From Haplodiscus bocki (taxonomy: Eukaryota), in assembly GCA_965655095.1 (NCBI GenBank), contig OZ296656.1, positions 27,838,001-27,902,000 of the forward strand: 64,000 nt of DNA. The letters run 5' to 3'. The notes beneath the pieces were generated by a model. That model did no database searches, was not told the DNA's origin, and worked only from the letters and a program-made list of their open reading frames with translations. Below are positions 22,801 through 49,704 of the stretch, one piece after another. The position numbers were made by a program, and so were the translations under genes. Each line of letters opens with the position of its first letter. The first letter of the stretch is position 1.

Positions 22801-23864
22801 TCCATTTTGGTAAAAAATTGTGTGTTGTATTGCAAGTTTTCAATTAATTAATACTGTTGTAATTTTTTCCTTAAATCCCCAATTTTGTGACCTTTTACCC
22901 AATTTAGCCTTTTATGTGTTAAATGTAGAGGTAAAAAGATACGTGGATGGTGTGAAAAACTTTTGAATGTAGTTCAATGTGTTCCAAAAGATTAGTATAG
23001 AAATAGAAAAAAAATATGATATTATTCAATTTTAATAAAAAATAATTAACATATGTAAAGGTTATTTTAAGAGGAAAAGAAAATGATATTTTTGTTCCTC
23101 CAAGCTAAATACCACTTGGATGATAAACGCATACTTAGAATGCATAACGAACAATTAGGCTTGGATTAACAGCTCCTCGGCAAAAGCAGGGAATATAAAG
23201 AGAACATCAACGGAGTCACCCGAGCTTTCAACTCAGAAATCACTTCACTCAGATATTAAAACAGACAAGAACAAAACAAGTAGGTAATGGGAAATTAAAA
23301 GTTGGACCATGTTATAGCGGTGAAACGTATCTTATGATTTAAATATCTTAGTGAAAATAGAACTTATTTATCAGGTTTTCTGAACAGCACAGAAACAATG
23401 AAGTCAACGTAGAAGTCACCTCCTCGGATAGCCACAGATTGGAGATATATTAGGATGTTAGACATACCCGGGTCGAAATTTTGGCTGACCTTTTTCAACG
23501 GTGGCGACATCGGCCGAAAAACGCACGTATTTCGTGGAAAAACCGGTGGTGACCGGCGTTCCTTCGAAGTTTAGCTGCGGTTACCGGCGTTTCTTGGAAA
23601 AATGGGAGCGGTTACCAGCATTTCGGGGGAAAATTACGGCAGTAACCGTACTTTCGTAGCAAAATTCAGCCGTTAAAAGACTTTTTCAATGTTGATTTTA
23701 ATTTTGTTCAAAATGTGTTTTCCTGATGTGTATTACGTTTCTGGGCCACACCCAAAAATAAACCTTTTTCCAGAGGTTGAAAAAGGGAAAGTTGAAAATA
23801 AAAAATTCTCAGTTTCAATCTTCTTCAAAAATCCTCTGTTCAATTCACCAAAACATAGGATGTA

Positions 23865-24144
23865 AGTAGTGTATAAAAAAGCATTTGACACCAGGCGCGC
23901 ACGACGCATCCTCGTCCGACACCAACCACTCAACAAAATCACAAAAATACAAATCCTAGGGTGTATAATTATACAATAAATAATAATTAGAAGAATAAAA
24001 ATATATTAATCAAATAATTGAATGAATACAATAAAAAATATTTACACCCTAGGATTTATATTTTTGTGATTTTGTTGAGTGGTTGGTGTCGGACGAGGAT
24101 GAGATCCTTTGCGACTGATGTCAAATGCTTTTTTATACACTACT
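23865..24144. repeat. Left terminal hairpin (arms 23865-23965 and 24043-24144)
   Basis: 26-bp perfect stem, 16/17-nt bubble, 59-bp stem with one mismatch, 77-nt AT-rich loop. Confidence 0.97.
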
Positions 24145-24347
24145 TAAGTCGTGAAAGTATATGATTATGTTTACTTAGAAATAAAATTGAAATTATAAAA
24201 TTACTTATATATTCTAGATCTTTATAATTTTTACCAAAACGTCACCGGTGTGTTAGCTTTAATCTCCTCTACAAATGTTAGAAAGTATGTATATACATTT
24301 CCACATTTACGCAAACGTATATTTTTAAGTTGAAACGATACTGAGAA

Positions 24348-24430
24348 TTTCACAAAATTCTTCACAAAAAACTTCACAATTTGTGAAAAAATTTGTGAAA
24401 AATTCACAGGCTGTGACGTTTTTTGTGAAA
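24348..24430. repeat. Array of TTCACAA/TTGTGAA heptamers
   Basis: Three ttcacaa copies then ttgtgaa copies at 12-nt spacing around ttcacaa-t-ttgtgaa. Confidence 0.7.
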
Positions 24431-24589
24431 AAATTTACTGGCTAACGAATGATAAAAAAAATATACACTTAGAAAGCTCGTTAAAAGTTTAGTATACCCT
24501 GAAAATTTCATCATTGTATCTAATACCATCTTCGAGAAATATGATCGTTAACACTTTGCTTAAACATGTAGAGATTATAAAATTTTAAG

Positions 24590-24832
24590 CTAGAACAAAG
24601 TGTGATATATCATTGGATAGCTTGTTGAAATATAAGTGTACGCTGAAATTTGCAGCTCTATATCTATTATATTCTTAGAGAAAATTGATGGAATTATAAG
24701 ATTTCTTTTTATTAGATAATATTTTTTCATGATATCTTGCATTTCTTTGTCCTCTCGATACAAACTTTTTAGATTTGTTGTTATTTTTAACTTGTCTAGT
24801 TTTTCAAAGCATTCTTTTGATTTTACAACCAT
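24590..24832 (-). CDS. Polinton hypothetical protein
   Basis: 80-aa ORF starting at TATAAATG like its neighbours. Confidence 0.5.
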   Translation of the reverse strand: MVVKSKECFEKLDKLKITTNLKSLYREDKEMQDIMKKYYLIKRNLIIPSIFSKNIIDIELQISAYTYISTSYPMIYHTLF

Positions 24833-24840
24833 TTATATGA

Positions 24841-25450
24841 TCACAATCTGGCCAAGCAAAGATATACGTAATTATCATCGCGACTCACTGGTCTATATCT
24901 ATGCCACAGAAAACCATACTTAATATCTTTCTCAAGATCATTTAATTTTGTTATATGTTTAAGCAAATTCGATTTTAATACTTTTCTAGGTTGTTCAAGA
25001 CGATGTCTCGGAGTCATAATGTAATAATACGAGTAAAACGTAATTGATAAATTTTTTATAACTGTTTCAAGAGATAATTTTTCACCTTTCATCAAAACAT
25101 GCCCTCGTATACGATATAGTATTTCCTCACAAACGGGATATAAATAACGAAAAACCTCATCACCAAAACCATATTTTATCAGTCTTTTTTTTAGTCTTAT
25201 CATACCAAATCACTAAATCCTCACCAAATAAATTACACTTTACCAATGTTTTAAAGATTGGAAATTTTAATCTATTAGTATGAACATACTCACGAATAAC
25301 TCTGTAAAAGTCTTTCCAATAGACATCGCCAATATTGTGTTTTTGTCTTATATATGATTTCATGTGTAAATGACTTTTAGACTTAATGTGTCTTGTTTTT
25401 GATTTTCGTTTAATCGTTTTATCGCAAATATCGCAAAAGTAATCCATCAT
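24841..25450 (-). pseudogene. Polinton C2H2 zinc-finger protein, probably one frameshifted gene
   Basis: N-terminal CDICDKTIKRKSKTRHIKSKSH finger. ORFs 25160-25450 and 24841-25203 overlap around a homopolymer run. Confidence 0.55.
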
Positions 25451-25470
25451 TTAATATACTTCAAAGTCTT

Positions 25471-25785
25471 TTAATTATCATCTCCAATTATCAATTTACC
25501 ATTATTATCTTTAATTAATTTCTCAAATGAGAGCATGTATAATATATTTTCTCTTAAATCATGAATATTTGCAATAATATTTTCAATATCATTATCATGA
25601 ATTTTCAAAATTATATCGTCAATTATAGACAGTGATGCAATAATCGTTGTATGTGGAATTGTTTTATGAAAACTCTCAATTATATATTTTCGTACTTGAT
25701 TGAGTTCTTCTGCAACTCCTATATTTTCATGATCGTAAAATAATGCATGATTACAAAAATTTAATATATCTTTTATTGTCTCCAT
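25471..25785 (-). CDS. Polinton hypothetical protein
   Basis: 104-aa ORF, TATAAATG start, tightly packed. Confidence 0.6.
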   Translation of the reverse strand: METIKDILNFCNHALFYDHENIGVAEELNQVRKYIIESFHKTIPHTTIIASLSIIDDIILKIHDNDIENIIANIHDLRENILYMLSFEKLIKDNNGKLIIGDDN

Positions 25786-25804
25786 TTATAAAGTAAAAAT
25801 TATA

Positions 25805-26329
25805 TTAATCATAATTCGAATGAATTTTATTTATTTTTATATTCTCAAGTTTCATAATATTATCATAATCAATATCAAACAAATTATCAATATCATCTAT
25901 ATCAATACTTTTTCTCTGTACAAATCTAAAATATGGTGTTGAATAATAAATATTTTCCCAACCTATTGCTATACTATATGGTGATAAATTATTACTCATA
26001 TTTGAGATATATTTATAAATTTTATCATTAGTTAGAAAACTACATACTTTATCACTGCCGATAAAAACATAGATATGTTTATTATTTTCTTCATTTACTC
26101 TAAGCAGAATAGTATTTCCATTGAACACTTCTCTATTTCTAGCTCCCGAAAATTCTGTCATATTACAATCTTCACTCTTGCCAATAAATGTCTCCATAGG
26201 ATTAACTTCGTATATAATATTATCATCATCAGAAACATCCTCCAATCTCTGTACACGAACCCATCCTTTATTGCGAGTAGTAACAGCTAAGCGTTCACAA
26301 TTACCTTCGCAGACATATATAATCGTCAT
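25805..26329 (-). CDS. Polinton hypothetical protein
   Basis: 174-aa ORF in very AT-rich DNA, TATAAATG start. Confidence 0.7.
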   Translation of the reverse strand: MTIIYVCEGNCERLAVTTRNKGWVRVQRLEDVSDDDNIIYEVNPMETFIGKSEDCNMTEFSGARNREVFNGNTILLRVNEENNKHIYVFIGSDKVCSFLTNDKIYKYISNMSNNLSPYSIAIGWENIYYSTPYFRFVQRKSIDIDDIDNLFDIDYDNIMKLENIKINKIHSNYD

Positions 26330-26577
26330 TTATATAGAGAAAAATTACTTTCAAGATACTTTGTTCTACTAATTTTCATTTTTAATTCCATATCTAAATC
26401 TGATATCTTTATCGACATTTTATTTATTAATTCTTTAAGAATATTATTCTGAATTAAATTATCATATACTATCTCATTTTTACGATCACAAGTTAATCTA
26501 TTATATCTATCTAACATATTATTTATTTTCATACATATGAAATGATCTTTTTTAATCACATCTATAAACGCTTCCAT
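26326..26577 (-). CDS. Polinton hypothetical protein
   Basis: 83-aa ORF whose stop overlaps the next start (ATGA). Confidence 0.55.
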   Translation of the reverse strand: MEAFIDVIKKDHFICMKINNMLDRYNRLTCDRKNEIVYDNLIQNNILKELINKMSIKISDLDMELKMKISRTKYLESNFSLYK

Positions 26578-26638
26578 TTGTAATGTGTAGAAAATTGAGA
26601 TCTTATTTAAATCATTTCAAGTAATCTTATCTAAATAA

Positions 26639-26812
26639 ATGGAATGTGCAGATTATGAAGTTATTTATTGTGAAGATGATGGAGAATGTAGAGTATATTG
26701 TAATGTTTGTGATACTTTATGTATAGAACGATTTGATAAAAATCATTTGAAATCTCAAACCCATATGAATAATATTCGTAAAAAGAAATCTATTTCAAAT
26801 ATTTCTACTTAA
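26639..26812 (+). CDS. Small C2H2 zinc-finger protein (57 aa, below the ORF track cut-off)
   Basis: MECADYEVIYCEDDGECRVYCNVCDTLCIERFDKNHLKSQTHMNNIRKKK..; TAAATG start. Confidence 0.65.
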   Translation: MECADYEVIYCEDDGECRVYCNVCDTLCIERFDKNHLKSQTHMNNIRKKKSISNIST

Positions 26813-26820
26813 ATAAAAAT

Positions 26821-36562: not shown

Positions 36563-37930
36563 ATGGAATTAACAGAAGATGAAATTATACAAAAATATGC
36601 CAAAAAATGCCTACATTGTAATAGAAATATGTTGCTACCATATAAAAATGAATGGACTTGCTTCTCGTGCGGATTCAATATAAATTAACATAAACATGAA
36701 CTCTCAAAAATACAAAGAAAGAAAATCAATTTTATTATTCGATTAAAATATGAAGAAGTAAAAATATTTTCCATATGTGTAGATTTATATATCATATGAT
36801 TTATTTATATAATCATATGAAGGTGATGATTATGATGAAATATATAAAAATTTATCAACATTAAAAAATAAAAAATTAAAAATAAATAATACCTTAATCG
36901 AGATATATAAAGATATGTTAGAAAATCCTAATTTTGAACAAAATAAGTACTCAATAACTTCAAAAGGTATATAAAAAAATGGCCATGATGGTATACGGTT
37001 AATGAAATGGATTTGTTTTTATGATAGATCATACTATGAAAATATAAATTATTATGATTTGATGGGTTCTCTTTGTTATGATTTAAATGAATTATCTAAA
37101 CGGTGAATGTCACGTTGAAGTAAAGGATCATCGATATAAAATCCATCCAACTGAAAATATTATTTTACGCAAACGAGATGAACCAAAATCTCTTAGAACT
37201 CAATATAAAGTTCAGAATGAGGCTCAGATAAGAAAGAATCAGAAAGTCATCAAAAATGATAATAATGAACTAGTAGTAAAAAATTATCCCAAAAATAAAC
37301 AACCAATTATTCAACAACAAAAATTTAAACCACCCAATTGTCCATCCTGTAAACAAAATAATTGGTTAGAATTTGATAAAGGTTAATATTGCACAAATTG
37401 TGAATATATCATCAACAAACAAAAACATGAGATAGATAAAAAAGTTCTTAGACAAGATCATGATTTTTCTACTAGCTTGAATTATGCTAATAAAAAAATA
37501 AGAGAAATATATATAAATATGGCTATTACTACTTATAATTCATCAGAAGATATGATTAAAAAATTACAAAGTTTAAAAGGTAAGACAAAATTAAAATTTT
37601 ATGAAAATATAAGTAATTATCATATTGAAATGAAAAATAAAAATTTTCAAACCAATAATCAAGATCCTTTTGGCTAAAAATGCTCAAGGTATTAGTAAAA
37701 TTTATCATGAAGTATTATTGCTGATGAAATTTTTACAGACTAAGCCTGAAGTTAAGAATATGAATATTAATTATCTTGATTTATATTTTACCGTTATTAA
37801 AATTAGAGATGAAAACAAAAATATAGATAATCAATATGATAATGATGAAAATGATTATATTGATATAAACGATTTTATTGATCCTAATCATTATATTGGG
37901 ATTCAAAATCGTGAAACAATATTGAGATGA
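36563..37930 (+). pseudogene. Two disrupted hypothetical genes with CxxC pairs (starts at 36563 and 37087)
   Basis: TAAATG starts; CLHC/CFSC and CPSC/CTNC motifs; several stops and frameshifts. Confidence 0.45.
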
Positions 37931-38001
37931 GATAATGGAGAAAAATGAGATCTTGAATAAATCATTTCAAGTAATTCCTACTATATAAATAGAGACGCAA
38001 A

Positions 38002-41000
38002 ATGAGTAGCCGCAGATGTGAAGTTTGTAATGTTGATGTTCATAGATCATCTTATGCAAAACATTTAAAAAGTAAGAAACATATAGAAAATATGAAACAG
38101 AATGAAATGATTATACCGGAATGGTTGTATCAAGAACCTGTTGAAAACAAATATAATAAAATATATAATCCTAAATCATTAAAACAATTAGCACGAAATA
38201 ATATTAAATTAGATGATAAGCAATTAAATAAAGAATTAGCTAAAAAGATGCTTAATCCATATTATTTTACTGATAGAAATTTGAAAGTTGCATATAAAAT
38301 TTATTTAGATAGCCATCATATTAATCATTTAAATTCTAAAGTAACTATTACATCAATTTTCGAAAATACAGGAATAGAATTTAGATTTATTAATAAAATT
38401 ATGAGAGAGATGTCTATTATATATGCTAGATTAATAAATCAATAAATATTCAAATATCAAACTGTATTTTCAACTAGATTTGATAAGCAAGATGAAGACG
38501 GTCAATTATTAGATGAAATAGAATTATTCATTAATTTGAATATGAATTATAATATAACACAAAGCGATATTGATAATATTAATATTACATTTCCACTAGA
38601 ACGCCAGATTCAAAAACAAGAAATGAAAGATTCTGGTTGGAGATTTGATAAAATTAATTCTATGACAATATATTTTTAAGGAACTATTGAAATGAATGGT
38701 TTAAATTATACCAAAATTCCTTTGAGAACAAACGCTATCTTGAATATTGAAAATAACGATAAATATTGTTTCTTATGGTCTATATTAGCTTGGTTACATC
38801 CTTGTAATAGAAATCATCCCAACAGACTTTCAAATTACAGACAATATTTCAATGAATTGAATATTCAAGGTTTCGATTTTACTAAAGGATTTAAATGCAG
38901 CGACGTTCACAAATTTAATGAATTAAACAATTTATCTGTTAATATATTTGAATTAAATTTTTATCAAGATCAGAATTAATGGAAACATAAATTAATACCT
39001 ATTGAAGTTAGTAAAAATAATTCAGATAGAGTCATCGATTTAGCTATTTACAAAAATCATTTTGTTCTTATTAAAAAATTAGATGTATTTTTAGGTGATC
39101 ATAATAAAAAATATATTTGTAGGCAATGCTTATGTTCATATACAAGCGAAAATATGTTATTGAAACATAAAGAAAAATGTGGGGATGATAATATAACTGT
39201 TATCAAAACTTCAAATGAATCACATCTACAGTGGAAAAAACATTTTCATAAGAATCCTTTATATTTCAGAATATATGCAGATTTCGAAGCTGATAATGAA
39301 AAAGATAATTCTATTATAGGTAATAAAACAACTAATATGTATAAACAAAACCCAGTATTGAATGGTTATTATATAGTATCTGAATTGGAAGATATTTTAA
39401 AAAGTGATTATTACAAATCTCCTTTAGGATATAATAATGTTGATTGGTTTGTTGATGAGGTCATAAATTTAGAAAATAAAATGGCTTTCTATTTTAAAAA
39501 TACTAACAGAGATATCATTATGACGCAAGAAGATGAAGAAGATTATAAAAATAATAATATTTGTCGATTTTGTGAAAAATTTATTGAATCTGATAAAGTT
39601 AGAGATCATTGTCATCTAACTGGTAATTATAGAGGACCGGCTCATAGCAAATGTAATATTAATGCAACGCAAAAACAAAGTAACTTTATTCCATTCATAT
39701 TTCATAACTTTAGTAACTATGACTGTCATATGTTTTTTAAAAAGTTGGTTGATAAAAAGAAAGATAAAGTAGTTTTCGATATTATACCTAAAACAAACGA
39801 AGAGTATATATCAGTTACTTATGGTTGTATCAGATTTATTGATAGCTATCGAGTCCTATCAAGTGGCTTGGATTCATTAGTTAAGACATTAGTCGATAAT
39901 AGTCATAAAACATTAGAAAATTTGAAAAAAGAAATTGTTGATAAAGATGAAATATTAAATATTATTGATGAAATAGTAGAAGAAGATAAAACTATTAAAG
40001 ATTTAAAGAAAGATTATCCAGATAAAATTAAATTTTTAGAAGAAACGTTACTTGATTATATGGGAGAAAATGATCTCAAAATATTAAAAACAGGATTTCC
40101 TGACAAATGGAAATATTTAACAAAAAAACTAGCTTATCCATATGAATATTTTAATAGTATTGATGATTATCAAAAACCTGTTGACAATTTAAAGAAAGAA
40201 CATTTCTTCAGTAAATTGAAAAATAAATGTTCTGATGATGAAGAAATAGAAAGAACAATGGATATTATTAGGAGATTTAATATTAAAAATGGAGAAGAAT
40301 TAACACAAATATATTTAAAAAGTGATGTACTTCTGCTTGCATGTGTCTTTGAAAAATTTATAAAAGTGTCAGTTAATGAATTTGATATCAATCCACTATA
40401 TTGTGTGTCTCTGCCAGGCTATACTTGGCAGTGTGGTTTAAAGAGTACGGGAATAAATTTACAAACACTCCAAGATAAAGATATGATATTGTTATTAGAG
40501 AATAATATACGTGGTGGTATTTCATCTGTTATGGGAGATAGATATATAAAATCAAATGAAAATAAAAAGATATTATATATAGATGCGAATAATTTATATG
40601 GTCATAGTATGTCTCAACCATTACCATTCGATGAAATTAAATTTGATAATAATGTTACCTTAGAAGGTATATTAAATACTCCTGATGATAGTGATATTGG
40701 ATATTTTGTTGAAGTTGATTTGACTCATCCAAATAATATAAAAGAGAAAACAAAGAATTTTCCGTTTGCTCCTGTGAATAAAAAAATTAATCCTGATGAT
40801 TTTAATGATTATATGAAAGAAATTAGACCTAGTACGTATGTACAATCTAGTAAATTGATATGTGATTGGTCTGATAAGAAAAATTATTTGGTTCATTATA
40901 GGATGTTGAAATTCTATATTAGATATGGATTAATAGTAGATAAAGTTCATAGTGTTATCTCATTTAAACAAAGTAGATGGTTAGAAAAATATATTAGTTT

Positions 41001-41818
41001 TAATACACAAAAACGTAATAAAGCTAAAAACAATTTTGAGAAAGACTTCTATAAATTATTAAATAACGCTTTTTATGGTAAGACGATGGAAAATGTTAGA
41101 AATCGTTTGAAAATAAAATTTATTAAAAAAGATGATCATAAAGAAATAATAAAACAACAATCTAAATTGACTTTCAATGGTATTCATAAATCATAGGAAA
41201 ATTGTGATAGTTATACATTCAAGCAAAATGAATTTCATATGGATAAGCCCATATACTTGGGATTTTCCGTATTAGAATTAAGTAAATTATTGATGTATGA
41301 GACTTATTATGATATATTACAACCATATTTTGGACAAGAAAATATTCAATTACATTATATGGATACTGATAGCTTCGTATTAAGTGTAAATACAAAAGAC
41401 ATTATCAAAGATTTGAAAAATCTTGAAGATATATTTGATTTCAGTAACTTAGATAAAAATCATGAACTATTCAGTAATAAAAATAAAAATGTGATTGGTA
41501 AATTTAAAATAGAAACTCCTAAGAATATCTGGATAGATGAATTTGTGTGTCTAAGAAGTAAAATGTATGCTTTTAAATGTGGAAATGATAGTAAAAATAA
41601 ATTGAAAGGTATTTCTAAATCTCAATCAAAAAATATTAAATTTGGAGAATATATAAAATGCTTAAATGGAGAGGATTTTCAACAAGAATGTGATAATTAT
41701 ATTATAAGATCAATTAATCATGAAAAGATTCTTCAAAAAGTAAAAAAAATCTACACCTTCTATTTTCGATGATAAACGATATTATCTAAATAATATTGAA
41801 AGAAAACCATGGAATTAA
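38002..41818 (+). pseudogene. Protein-primed family B DNA polymerase (pPolB), with four in-frame stops and a C-terminal frameshift
   Basis: One frame with stops at 38443, 38677, 38977 and 41194. Motifs: ExoI IYADFE, ExoII FHNFSNYD, ExoIII YLKSDV, A YIDANNLYG, B KLLNNAFYGKT, C YMDTDS, and an embedded RDHCHLTG..AH..CN domain. Confidence 0.97.
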
Positions 41819-41887
41819 TATCAATTTCTCGAAGGTTATAATAGATATAAAGCTATAATTTTCAACGTACACTAATATTTTCACGAG

Positions 41888-42127
41888 CTATCCAAAAACA
41901 TATAACAATTTGATGTAGTTTAAGGTATGTCGACATATACTGATTTTATTAATTTTCTCAAAGAATATAATATCACCTGGTTTATATATTTTGTAAGTTA
42001 CGTATGCAGGAATATTTAATTCTATGTTATTTGGTAATGGTAAATTATTAAAATTGTTTATGTGTATATTTGTTATCATTCTACCATCTATTTCCCTATA
42101 TAAATATTTTTCTTTTAGTTTTGTCAT
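41888..42127 (-). CDS. Polinton hypothetical protein (possibly truncated)
   Basis: 79-aa ORF convergent with pPolB. Confidence 0.4.
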   Translation of the reverse strand: MTKLKEKYLYREIDGRMITNIHINNFNNLPLPNNIELNIPAYVTYKIYKPGDIIFFEKINKISICRHTLNYIKLLYVFG

Positions 42128-42263
42128 TATAATTTTTTTGATATTATGATATTCTGATAAATTTGATATTATTTTTATCTAATTCAGATGGAGATGAAAA
42201 TATTTGTAAATATCTTTCATATTTAGATAGTTTTTATATTTGAAATGATTTTTAGTTATATAA

Positions 42264-42569
42264 GTGATTGAACTAAAAGATGTTTTAGACTATATTGATA
42301 ATGGTATAACTGATAATAATAATAAAACTCACTATATATTATATATATCGATGATACATGATTTCTTTTTAATTTTAGAGGGTATCGATTTTGGTATAAG
42401 GTATGAATTATTGGAACAATCAAATCTAATAATAACAAAATTAATTGACTATGAAAATGGTTTGTTAAGAGATGATTGGTTTAAGATGAGGAATTTGATA
42501 GTTTCAAATCTTATAGAACAAAACGAAGAGCTAGATGACGATGATAGATATTTCAAATCATCATCATAA
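42264..42569 (+). CDS. Polinton hypothetical protein; start probably mutated (TATAAGTG from TATAAATG)
   Basis: 101-aa acidic ORF just inside the right hairpin. Confidence 0.5.
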   Translation: MIELKDVLDYIDNGITDNNNKTHYILYISMIHDFFLILEGIDFGIRYELLEQSNLIITKLIDYENGLLRDDWFKMRNLIVSNLIEQNEELDDDDRYFKSSS

Positions 42570-42623
42570 TCTTATAATATCAATTTTATTTCTAATTCAA
42601 CATAATCGTATCCTTAATCGTCG

Positions 42624-42913
42624 AGTAGTATACAAACAAGCATATGACATCAGTCGCAAAGGATCGCACTCGTCTAAGAAGAATTTATCCTATTCAAAAT
42701 CATAACAAACACCATACACCAGGTATGATTATAAATTATCCTATTTTTTATTGTATACATATTCTTTTATTATGTGATTATATTTTATCTTATTCGTTTA
42801 TATATACAATTATACCTGGTGTATGGTGTTTGTTATGATTTTGAATAGGATAAATTCTTCTTAGACGAGTACGTCTTGCGCGTCTGGAGTCATATGCTTG
42901 TTTGTATACTACT
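42624..42913. repeat. Right terminal hairpin (arms 42624-42726 and 42812-42913)
   Basis: 25-bp perfect stem, 19/18-nt bubble, 59-bp perfect stem, 85-nt AT-rich loop. Confidence 0.97.
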
Positions 42914-43680
42914 GATGTACATAACAAAGTAAATACAGTTTTTTAAGCAGAAATTGCTTTTTGCTTTTTTCGAGACAAAAATCATCCACAAAATTGTGGT
43001 ATCAGATATTTGAAAGTACATCAAGTCAATTGATGCTTCATCTCAAAAAACTTGGAAACATTTTTTGGCTTTCTCCGAGGTGAAATCTTCAAAACTAACA
43101 TTCGGAATACGTTATTATAATACAGCGGCGATCTTTTTCGAAGATATAGTCGACGAAAAACAGCCGATTTTCAATTTTCAAAAATATTTTACAATAAAAA
43201 CACATCGGCGCATCTCAGAATGATAACGGCGGTATCAGCGGAAATAACGGTGATCTTAGTAATATATCGGCGAATCTCAAAAAAAATTTCAACGCACGTA
43301 CTTAAGAGCTTCAGCGTCATGAAGTTACTGTTTTGCTTATTGCTGAAATTCTTGATTTCCATCAAAATTTAATGGATGCTTTTTATTTACAAGAGGTAGA
43401 CAGAAGGAATTCGAAGAATAACATTCAACACAATCACATTTCAGTCTCCAAAAGCAAATAATTAGGGGCTGACACAACGAAACAATTTTTTTCAAACGAA
43501 CTCTGAAGAGTATTGAATATAATCGAAAAGATGTTGAAAGTTGAATGTAAAAAACTCAAAAATTCATGTAGAGATGCATACATAGAGAGGAGTAGAACAA
43601 ACAAAAAGTAGAAAGATTAAGAAAGAAAGATAATGAAAGTAATGTTTTTTTATTCAAAATCCGGAAACGAGTTGTATGTC

Positions 43681-43887
43681 TGTTCTATCTTGAATCTCTC
43701 GGTTAAAGCAAAAGTATCAGATAACAACTATTCTTTTGTATGTTTTTTTTTCGTATGATAGTCTTTTAACGATTAGAGTTCAAATTAGTGTACTGTTTAC
43801 TAATATGTATCAACATTTGTCTAAATATAGTTTCTTTTTCTTTCGGTACGGTTGTGTAACCGAATGTACGGTTGTCACCGTATAACA
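43681..43887 (-). repeat. 3' LTR, preceded on the minus strand by the polypurine tract aaagaggggaa (43888-43898)
   Basis: tgttct...tataaca boundaries; aligns to 49242-49443. Confidence 0.9.
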
Positions 43888-46800
43888 TTCCCCTCTTTGT
43901 ATCCGCTACTGGTTCTCGTTGTATCCATCATTGTCCTTCGGGTCGTAATCAGATTCGATTTCTTCAGTTGTCTTTAGTCTCGGCTTGGGTGCTTCTTTTC
44001 TGGTGGGTCCTGTAAATAAGTTAAATGTTATTTTAGTGTTAGAAATATGGTACACTGCCTAAGCCGTCCGGTGGTTTGAAAATTTGATTTGATCTACGCA
44101 AGTTAGTTTTACCGTCCCTATCCTGCGTCTCACCGTTGTTGTTGATTTTATTTGTTCCGATCTATTCGGTAACAACGCTAAGGTCGGCCGTCTCCTTGTC
44201 ACCGTCTCCTTGTCAACGTCGACATGTACTGGTTTGCCTTCGCATCGGTCGTAACTTTTGAAATCATTGCCGTTGTCGTCGTCCGAGGCCACCTTCCATA
44301 CCTTCGGTCGGGATTTGGAGATTATTTTCTACCATTCGACGCGCTATCGTATTCGCCCACCACCAGTCCTCGCAGACTGTGTTTGTTTGGTGACAGGTCT
44401 TTCTTCGGTGATCTCTGAAATTCAATCTTTGTTGATATTGATCTTCGGTGAAAAATTTTTTTGTCTGCAGTACGGGCCGTATGTTCGTAACCGTCTACGG
44501 CAATTCTCGGTTGTTCTGTGCATTTCCCTTCCAGTGATTTTTTCTGTTTCCGTCTGTCAGAAAATGTGTATGGATATTAGAAATTCTCACTAACCGGCTC
44601 GATCGGTCTTTTTTTTACTGATCGGTATGATGCGCAGCTTGGGGTTCTCCCCTTCCCGGCCATAATCATAAGGTCGGTCACCTCGTCTGTTTCGTTTCGG
44701 GCCACATATATTGATATCTGTGTTGGCGGTACTGAAACCTTCAATGTTGTCCAGTCAGATAGGTAGCTCTTGTTTCCTTTGATTATATTTGTTAGTTCAG
44801 TTCTCGGTTTTCTTCCGTGATGTAGTTCGAAGGGCTCACTTTAAGTCCGGTATGTGTTGTGAATTGGATTACTCTAAATGCTCTGTTTATGCTTTCGGTT
44901 ACTCCGATCTTGTCTTCCAGATTGGAAAAAATTGGATTTTTTAGCGTTTGTATTGCGCGTTCAACCGCCCCCGTACCTGTATGTAGTCTAGGTGGGCTAT
45001 GTTCTATTACGATGTTCCGATTTTTACAAAGCAAATTGTTTTCTCTTCATGTGAACACGTTGCCCTTATCGGACTTTATTTTCTCAGTGACACGTAAAAG
45101 TTTATGAAGCTTTCTAGAAATTTCATGGTTTATTTTGCTTCGGTTGATTTACATATCCCAACTACGGGCCATTTGCTATATAGATCGGTTCCAATAAATA
45201 TGGAAGGTTCCCTGGTTACATATTTGTTGTAACTTACCGAAAAAAAAATCAATTTGTATCTCTTGGCCAGGATCGGTCAATGTCGGTAATCTGATTTTTC
45301 CGTAGATGGTAATTAGTACTTCAAAATGTTACCGGAACTGGTACATGCAGTGCATGTGCTGCACCAGTTTTTGATATCTTTCTTCATTCCGGTCCACCAG
45401 AATATGCTGCCTTCCGCAAGTATCTTTGTTGAGCCCGGATATTCGAAAGGTAGTGCGTCCACCATCAGTTTCTTCAGCTTGTCGGGAATCACAATCCTGT
45501 CCCCGGCGGATAACAAACCGAACCGTTCAGTGATTTAGCTAAAAACCAAAGAGAATTCTCCGGGAACTCTATCTTTTTAGTTGTTGCGGACCTATTTCTT
45601 CAGTTCTAATAATTTCGGAACAACCGAAGTTTTGTGTATCAGAGTTTTTATATCAATCATGAAATTAAACTCGGCTTTCTTCAAGTTTTCTTGTGCTTCT
45701 GCTCTTTTTGTTTTTGGTTTCTCGATCACATGATTGATTTGAATATATTGGATAGTCTTTTCGGTGATATCGTTGTATTTGAGGTCGACTATTGGGAAGT
45801 TCGACGAAGATTTCGCCACTTCATTTTCTTCTGTGCTGGATACTGGTTCCGTTGTGTTTTGTTCCCTTGAACTTGATTCTCCTTTATTAGAACTGGGTTT
45901 GGGTTCATTGAACTCCAATTAACTTCCGCCCTACCAGTTCGTTTCATTGATCTGGAAAAAAAGTTCGACATCAGTTTCAGCCACCTCCTCCCTTCCTCGC
46001 TTTTCTGGTCGTCGTGGGACCCACACTTTTCTGTTTAGGCTGCTATCAAATTGGAACCGAAGGTTTCCGGGTTTGGTTTACTTTGCGTTTTTCAATTAAT
46101 CAAAGGGTCTCCGTGCTTTTCTCGCGTTTGTATATATTTTTTATCACTTTCTTGTTTGCTCCCCAATGGTGATTGTCATAATTGAATTGCTTCTGCATCT
46201 TTGAATCATCAATGAGATTAACTTCCGTGTTAATTGGAGTAAGTGCTTGTGCTTGTTCACGTGTGAAATCTTTTGGATTGACATCCGAATTGAAACTCTT
46301 CGGTGAAGCAATTTCCTTGGTTGATTCTTGGATCGCTGTCAGAGTCATGTCTGTTGATTGGTCGGTTGGCCGATATTTCAGGCCCGTCTTTCAGAGTTGT
46401 CCGTATTTATGGTTTGATATAAAGAGTTCGCATAGAAAATTGATAACATTTTCTTCATCATGTGTTCCCTCGGTTGCTGTTTCTTCGGTGGGATGTCGGC
46501 TTAGGTAGTCCATTAATGATAGATTCTTTCCTGCCGTGTGTTTTATTGAATTATCAAAGTTTGCCAATTTATCAAACCATCTCGTTAATCGTGCGCTGTA
46601 TTGTCGGTATGCTCGGTGACGTTTAATCAATGATTCTGAAGCTTGGTGATCGGTATAGAGGTCAGAGATGTAATACCTTACCGTACAAATAAAAGGGAAA
46701 TTTCTCTAGTCCCCATACTATTGCGAGTGATTCCAGTTGTCCGATTGAACAGTTCTTCTCGGCGTGATTCAGATTTTGGCTGGTGAGTGCTATTGGTCGG

Positions 46801-49241: not shown

Positions 49242-49443
49242 TGTTCCATCCTTAATCTCTCGGTTAAAACACAGGTATCAGTTAACAATCATTCTTTTTC
49301 ATGGTTATTTCGTATAATAGTTCTTTGACGATTAGAGTTTAAAGTAGTGTATTGTTTACTAATATGTATCAACATTTGTCTAAATATAGTTTCTTTTTTG
49401 GGGACGGTTGTGTAACCGAATGTACGGTTGTCACCGTATAACA
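49242..49443 (-). repeat. 5' (chimeric/shared) LTR, followed on the minus strand by PBS TGGCGCATTCAGC (49229-49241, tRNA-Ser-like)
   Basis: tgttcc...tataaca boundaries. It has a PBS on one side and also a PPT on the other side. Confidence 0.88.
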
Positions 49444-49704
49444 TTCCCCTCTTTGTATCCGCTACTGGTTCTCGTTGTATCCATCATTGTCCTTCGGGTC
49501 GTAATCAGATTCGATTTCTTCAGTTGTCTTTAGTCTCGGCTTGGGTGCTTCTTTTCTGGTGGGTCCTGTAAATGAGTTAAATGTTATTTTAGTGTTAGAA
49601 ATATGGTACACTGCCTAAGCCGTCCGGTGGTTTGAAAATTTGATTTGATCTACGCAAGTTAGTATTACCGTCCCTATCCTGCGTCTCACCGTTATTGTTG
49701 ATTT
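49444..49704 (-). repeat. Near-identical duplicate of the retroelement's PPT-proximal internal region (43888-44148)
   Basis: About 260 bp with about 3 substitutions by eye. Confidence 0.9.

Follow-up and report, generated by a model that had tools for sequence, protein, structure and literature searches.

Polintons are recognized by a target site duplication (TSD) of 6 bp, ends of the type (AGT)2//(ACT)2 or (AG)3//(CT)3, and terminal inverted repeats (TIRs) of 100-1500 bp (PMC8097293, main text). The standard model of their replication requires the two TIRs to anneal, according to the sections available of a preprint (bioRxiv 10.64898/2026.07.28.741278) that also describes palindromes inside the TIR in virophages of Halocafeteria seosinensis and in one subtype of Polinton-like virus, and proposes hairpin priming for them; the scan reported there allowed 4 mismatches and a 10-nt gap. 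As for bacteria, the protein-capped Streptomyces telomeres have a single-stranded 3' end that folds back, with fold-back repair beside protein priming (PMC5449611, in the part available). The element considered here lies in a window of 64,000 nucleotides from the eukaryote Haplodiscus bocki (assembly GCA_965655095.1, 1.5 Gb; contig OZ296656.1, positions 27,838,001 to 27,902,000, forward strand), in which it spans 19,049 bp (23865-42913; all positions are those of the window) between two perfect copies of GATGTA. It belongs to an abundant Polinton family in which the TIR holds an inverted second copy of its own terminal ~100 bp, and the palindrome so formed is present on about 880 ends in the genome.

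The assignment to Polintons, made earlier in a sequence-only reading of this DNA, stands on the 6-bp TSD, the AGTAGT ends, a capsid protein matching PF21738, a retroviral-type (rve) integrase and a DNA polymerase B of the protein-primed type (pPolB). The AGTAGT...ACTACT ends fit the (AGT)2//(ACT)2 definition, and the TIR of about 340 bp is within the Polinton range (PMC8097293, main text). The element is AT-rich, with a GC content of about 0.25 against 0.38 in the flanks.

Architecture and rules of the terminal hairpins

The two ends of the window copy are organized as follows.

23859..23864, no strand: left TSD, GATGTA
23865..24144, + strand: left terminal palindrome, type A, 280 nt
23865-23965: left hairpin, outer arm, with stem 1 at 23865-23890 (26 bp), the outer-type patch to 23906 and stem 2 at 23907-23965
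23966-24042: left hairpin, loop (77 nt)
24043-24144: left hairpin, inner arm, with the stem 2 partner at 24043-24101, the inner-type patch and the stem 1 partner at 24119-24144
24155..24203, + strand: left TIR inner tail, outside the palindrome, common to different end types, 88% identical to the right tail
42567..42615, - strand: right TIR inner tail, 88% identical to the left tail
42624..42913, - strand: right terminal palindrome, type B, 290 nt
42624-42726: right hairpin, inner arm, with stem 1 at 42624-42648 (25 bp), the inner-type patch and stem 2 at 42668-42726 (59 bp)
42727-42811: right hairpin, loop (85 nt)
42812-42913: right hairpin, outer arm, with the stem 2 partner at 42812-42870, the outer-type patch and the outer stem 1 at 42889-42913
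42914..42919, no strand: right TSD, GATGTA

The coordinates, stem and loop sizes and GATGTA duplication given by the sequence-only reading were all reproduced, as were the 21 of 25 terminal nucleotides alike between the ends and their common loop motif. Its further claim, that wherever the ends differ the partner arm shows the matching change, agrees with the alignment of the four arms, in which 30 columns separate left from right, 1 is a singleton and 51 are identical. Regarding the "bubble" between the stems, a mismatch region of about 7-8 mismatches (the patch) is indeed present; it is not an open loop, being interrupted by two 3-bp pairings. In the left hairpin, 58 of the 59 positions of stem 2 are paired. 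Folded as single-stranded DNA, the left hairpin has an energy of -102.9 kcal/mol (z -22.6) and the right one of -101.2 kcal/mol (z -22.3); none of 200 shuffled controls was as stable as either. In the ends examined, the palindrome is flush with the last base at the 3' end.

Between the two ends, whole-hairpin identity is 0.69, and complementarity of the inner arms across the element is 89%. Homology extends about 60 bp inward of the hairpins, and the ends are therefore a diverged pair of one TIR, composed of palindrome and ~60-bp inner tail, without any TIR replacement; the tail was matched over at least 40 nt in 75 of 89 termini. Slightly inside both TIRs (24290-24530 and 42113-42320) are short repeats of a TGTGAAAAA-type motif, common to many copies.

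That the hairpin is a family trait with covarying arms, as had been proposed, was confirmed on 64 termini. Stem 2 occurs in 13 types, only 47-85% alike between types, and its median pairing is 0.96 with its own arm, compared with 0.625 with the arms of other elements; hence pairing is kept, and not sequence. In stem 1, variants are mirrored in 31 of 32, 22 of 30 and 15 of 22 cases, with 17.0, 8.8 and 5.4 expected; neither comparison is corrected for relatedness. Hairpin lengths run from 220 to about 480 nt and are rarely greater; one element (L132/L147, G000:C1:45376100-45394633) has unusually long hairpins of 655 to about 860 nt.

The patch is polar. Exact pattern searches returned 881 matches to its outer-type form and 839 to its inner-type form, with 0 for the controls, and among 145 distinct hairpins 122 have the outer type outside and the inner type inside, 10 are ambiguous through point changes, and none is reversed. 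In the other 13 the inner arm has been overwritten by the outer one, partly in 8 and fully in 5; these hairpins represent about 6 lineages and come in part from a search aimed at them, which makes them a measure of direction and not of frequency. All 8 partial cases have the loop-side part converted and the base-side marker kept: arm-to-arm copying goes from outer to inner only, entering from the loop side.

Matched and mixed ends in the family

Both ends could be measured in 68 of 71 pairs tried, the 3 unmeasurable pairs being left out together with the 7 of 29 followed ends whose partner was not found. The TSD is exact in 51 of the 68 elements and has one mismatch in 10; 5 have inverted flanks and 2 are of other kinds. 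In 61 the two ends have the same stem type, with a median hairpin identity of 0.97, the lowest values being due to insertions and deletions. Across 42 other elements, measured ahead of the follow-up of mixed ends, the alignment columns that divide the four arms two against two group them by arm (outer against inner) in 102 cases and by end (left against right) in only 5; the ends are thus copied from one another instead of drifting apart, and end-to-end homogenisation is the normal state of the family. These counts tell against the proposals that hairpins replace identical TIRs and that the ends are free to diverge, and the label "heterotelomeric" was rejected for the family.

The mismatched ends of the window copy are nevertheless no one-off, in line with the earlier claim: two stem types occur in 7 of the 68 elements, namely the window copy, 5 others with an exact or one-mismatch TSD, and 1 without a matching TSD, which is doubtful. 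In the 6 with matching TSDs, each end pairs with itself. Ends with unranked partners were followed, and the sample of 68 is accordingly enriched for mixed ends; these made up 5 of the 37 further elements of type A or B whose partner end was traced, and among 28 pairs on contig C1 chosen regardless of type the doubtful element was the only mixed one. A fair estimate of their share in the family is about 5-10%.

As for the origin of the window copy, the element most similar to its left interior is of type A (89% over 1,169 bp), and the one most similar to its right interior is of type B (97% over 404 bp). Since ends are usually copied from each other and here 30 columns separate left from right, these affinities identify it, on sequence comparison, as a recombinant of two end types. 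In seven further elements (L013/L012, L081/L082, L073/L074, L093/L094, L097/L098, L105/L106 and L107/L108), the two outer arms differ from the two inner arms at 6-24 columns; they are likely recombinants already homogenised end to end, whose arms are not yet so.

The 5 elements with inverted flanks (L016/L014 at G000:C11:87349012-87368414, L067/L068, L083/L084, L291/L021 and L299/L300) have an inverted duplication of host flank in place of the TSD. The tracts measured are about 0.86, 1.0 and 1.8 kb long at about 99% identity, which suggests end-to-end copying that ran into host DNA after integration.

One stand-alone hairpin with a TSD of its own, a product for which the sequence-only reading had asked, was found: L080 (G000:C1:129131566-129131881) is 316 bp long, has two outer-type arms and is flanked by a perfect 6-bp TSD, CCCGTT. 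It is the product expected of recombination between the ends with loss of the body, because left and right arms are direct repeats able to recombine, and it is analogous to a solo long terminal repeat (LTR). Of the unpaired hairpins of ordinary type, 20 were fetched and 16 could be measured, none of them flanked by a TSD. The idea of a composite transposon made of hairpin units was not borne out and was dropped, the sole solo being a recombinant with two outer arms.

Replication of the folded ends

The family polymerase has homologues in public assemblies at 68-93% identity, many of them with a PF03175 match; the piece in the window has no such match at E 0.01, and is 42% identical to PF03175-positive loci. 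A Ser-Gly pair and vOTU-like Cys and His residues are invariant in 21 natural family polymerases. The Ser-Gly is predicted to lie between a helix and a strand, and the succession of secondary-structure elements around the Ser fits the terminal-protein topology in a model with a mean predicted local distance difference test (pLDDT) score of 38. Terminal-protein domains with a Ser between helix and strand and vOTU-like Cys and His have been described (PMC11161782, in the part available), and the family polymerase appears, from this model and the conserved residues, to retain a terminal-protein-like region. Protein-primed replicons are recognized by a terminal-protein domain in which a linking Ser or Tyr precedes the last strand, and by a protein attached covalently to the 5' ends. 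A fold search with the same low-confidence model gave one adintovirus and one MELD-virus match only, neither of them to a terminal-protein fold; the best ESM Atlas score, 0.83, is a lead only, and searches of PDB sequences gave no matches. One public family polymerase, P0022, diverges abruptly near its C-terminus, past the catalytic motif, possibly through an intein-like insert or a frameshift.

A second Polinton family in the same genome has a polymerase 42% identical to that of the hairpin family, with an HNH-like motif in 8 of 10 loci. Its ends are plain: the 6 examined fold at -26 to -34 kcal/mol, and in 5 elements coverage was limited to the end on the polymerase side. A link between the HNH insert and the hairpin ends was rejected because this family combines the motif with plain ends.

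The best model, with a probability of roughly one half, is protein priming on a locally folded end. A terminal protein would still prime replication; the end of a displaced or excised strand would fold back, its last base pairing with the inner AGTAGT copy, and the local fold would rebuild a duplex terminus open to priming, protection or repair with no need of contact with the other end, 19 kb distant. Pairing between the two ends would persist and keep most ends alike, no longer being required. Local fold-back would thus let mixed-end recombinants such as the window copy be completed and integrated, with most ends still homogenised. The patch would mark the inner copy as not the end, directing integrase and priming to the true terminus, and the arms would be kept matched by template switching or gene conversion starting in the long stem. 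In the window copy, local folding of both ends sums to -204 kcal/mol and end-to-end pairing gives -132 kcal/mol, in agreement with the local folding envisaged by the sequence-only reading. Possibly the patch keeps the inner copy from acting as an end: the third base of the inner AGTAGT is changed in 6 of the 13 overwritten hairpins against 3 of the 132 others, the changes coming from 2 lineages only.

It should be noted that several points weigh against this model. In 3 matched copies end-to-end pairing (-359 to -391 kcal/mol) is far more stable than local folding (-201 to -225 kcal/mol), and the ordinary panhandle model alone explains the 61 of 68 elements with matching ends. Conversion from another copy may have produced the mixed ends only once the element had integrated; 5 of 68 elements show that end-to-end copying can extend into host DNA. 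A symmetric or nearly symmetric patch is present at both ends, between good TSDs, in L122/L123, L085/L086 and L089/L090; these copies integrated, and the patch is therefore not essential. Hairpins are lacking in the related family, whose polymerase is similar, the covariation counts carry no correction for relatedness, and the structure model of the polymerase is poor (the mean pLDDT of 38 given above). Finally, we infer all functional steps of the fold-back model.

Among the other explanations, it is unlikely that the hairpin is a protein-read signal (a cruciform or the mismatch patch) for excision, integration or packaging, with replication by an ordinary panhandle. Such a signal would fit the conservation of stem 1 and patch in sequence and of stem 2 in pairing only, the match between most ends, the EndoVII-like domain of the polymerase, and the removal of the terminal protein before integration, a step left unexplained in the available part of PMC11161782. 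The second family, however, has the HNH-like motif and plain ends, and a signal alone does not explain how mixed-end copies, with their weak panhandle, are completed. Somewhat less likely is self-primed synthesis from a folded-back 3' end, as in the rolling-hairpin replication of parvoviruses: the 3' end is flush, with template running on beyond it, and the conserved inner tail is presumably placed like the D sequence of adeno-associated virus (AAV). A model of this kind has been drawn for the Halocafeteria elements and proposed for palindromic ends in the preprint (bioRxiv 10.64898/2026.07.28.741278), whose available text yet ties palindromes to elements without pPolB. Nick-and-copy resolution would moreover invert the palindrome, yet none of the 145 integrated hairpins is flipped, a search aimed at flipped ends having found symmetric ones only; the terminal-protein-like residues are invariant, and no Pfam family of HUH Rep nickases was detected in the 24 of 26 listed open reading frames (ORFs) of the window that were scanned. 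The integrase could pick one orientation and conceal flipped forms; still, the absence of flipped ends makes protein priming likelier than rolling-hairpin priming.

Less probable again is a palindrome without function, which would have arisen by a single template switch and whose arms would be kept alike by error-prone copying. Template switching at a quasi-palindrome yields polar tracts, such as the outer-to-inner ones of this family, the sister family has no hairpin, and symmetric copies did integrate; against this, 122 of 145 hairpins retain the patch between homogenised stems, and the inner copy exposes the element to complete loss, as in L080, a cost that suggests a benefit. It is very improbable that the mixed ends are an assembly chimera or a composite of two mobile hairpin units. 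No read or contig spans the element, and one solo hairpin does have its own TSD. Short-read contigs, however, match both host junctions exactly, although they extend into the element by no more than 24-25 nt, short of the 31 nt required for bridging, and stem from runs of one study that may be the source of the assembly itself; the right-junction contig bears variants private to the right hairpin. Matching TSDs flank five further mixed-end copies, both arms of the solo are of the outer type, and none of the 16 ordinary unpaired hairpins has a TSD.

Protein priming on a locally folded end can be taken a step further, tentatively, to a scheme in which each end is a self-sufficient folded origin, the patch tells the true end from the inner copy, and the panhandle is dispensable. 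Mixed-end recombinants would then be fully competent, ends would be swapped as modules between lineages, solo hairpins with two outer arms might be mobile mini-elements, and an integrating DNA virus would combine a parvovirus-like end geometry with adenovirus-like priming. Different predictions about extrachromosomal DNA follow from the panhandle, local fold-back and hairpin-priming models.

Gene content and comparison with known systems

Several genes of the element are broken into pieces, as judged from the ORF list and Pfam. The features between the TIRs are:

24590..27312, no strand: accessory ORFs, variable, without Pfam family; the subterminal regions vary widely among copies
27552..28277, + strand: probable packaging ATPase, in two pieces, with a Walker A-like motif; the downstream piece is without Pfam match, and the region, which we take to belong to this family, has no Pfam or PDB match
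29155..29940, + strand: probable minor capsid protein, presumed from position and size only, without Pfam match
30208..31500, + strand: double jelly-roll capsid protein (PF21738, E 2.5e-13, above cut-off)
31607..31903, + strand: probable adenain-like protease, part; so labelled on our assumption, with His/Asp/Cys motifs seen by eye and no Pfam or PDB match
35691..36562, + strand: retroviral-type integrase, two ORFs (PF00665, rve, E 9e-4, below the curated cut-off)
38002..41772, + strand: protein-primed DNA polymerase B, several ORFs (PF02945, E 1.7e-4, below cut-off), including the terminal-protein-like region, the vOTU-like motif and an HNH/EndoVII-like insert, with motifs at 38629 and 38758

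Next to the Polinton, two direct repeats of about 450 bp (43681-44134 and 49242-49690), 81-98% alike and 5.56 kb apart, are probably the LTRs of an adjoining retrotransposon.

The genome holds at least two further Polinton families (L151-L160 and L161-L180). Ends of the second family start with AGTATATG, not AGTAGT. One of its members (L151/L156/L173-L175, G000:C4 at about 88.366-88.385 Mb) forms a large inverted duplication with two facing polymerase genes 99.5% identical, identical ends, and a tandem-repeat centre containing an assembly gap; the unit of this repeat is similar to the hairpin family's inner tail. In the third group, no long hairpin was found in 3 upstream and 4 downstream stretches of 10 kb, its ends being mapped with uncertainty. 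Relatives with such termini were sought elsewhere, in viral contigs by protein and by pattern (0 loci) and in prokaryote genomes (0), and 80 metagenome loci, mostly short, showed no such end. Rfam gave 0 matches, and a scan for promoters and terminators stayed at chance level.

The family is like other Polintons/Mavericks (adintoviruses) in its 6-bp TSD, AGTAGT...ACTACT ends, TIRs of a few hundred bp, size of about 19 kb, and set of capsid, integrase and pPolB. The HNH insert of its pPolB recalls nematode and oomycete pPolB2 (PMC10748475, main text). It differs from the Polintons described in that each of its TIRs forms a long imperfect palindrome carrying a polar mismatch patch, and in its solos and mixed ends. 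The words "hairpin" and "palindrom" are absent from the main texts of PMC8097293 and PMC10748475, and hairpins of Polinton TIRs are not described in the available parts of these two, of PMC8502044, PMC12220804, PMC11296320 and PMC5182062, or of bioRxiv 10.64898/2026.10.13.758929; supplements, the founding papers of 2006-2007 and Repbase lie outside this scope and may note such ends. In the papers reviewed, as far as their available text goes, excision, priming and re-integration of Polintons are modelled without demonstration, and this family supplies hundreds of natural variants of a structured end in which pairing is kept, sequence is free, the patch is polar and copying is one-way. Solo hairpins with a TSD represent an LTR-like route of decay. 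Dates drawn from TIR identity may be wrong for such elements, whose ends undergo both homogenisation and exchange.

Hairpins of parvoviruses such as AAV and flip-flop telomeres of poxviruses share with this family an end-flush palindrome, an inner tail in the repeat and conserved mismatches. Unlike them, the family shows no flip/flop among integrated copies and no Rep-like gene in the scanned ORFs, and has a retroviral-type integrase. The Streptomyces telomeres are a functional analogy only, being bacterial, with many short palindromes, an internal origin and unrelated proteins.

The closest likeness is to the Halocafeteria elements, with which the family shares a palindrome inside the TIR, its position adjoining the TSD, an integrating relative and a proposed fold-back role; they are the one direct precedent met in the literature searched for Polinton, Maverick or adintovirus ends with such structures, and the suggestion that the architecture had no known description does not hold (bioRxiv 10.64898/2026.07.28.741278, in the sections available, as for what follows). 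Their palindromes measure 52 nt in the figured subtype and occur mostly in elements without pPolB, and covariation, polarity and solos are not described for them there; those of the present family measure 220-480 nt, have a long loop and a patch that is conserved, and belong to an element with pPolB. In conclusion, shorter terminal palindromes were already known, and what is new here is a long, polar and covarying terminal hairpin in a Polinton family that tolerates mixed ends.

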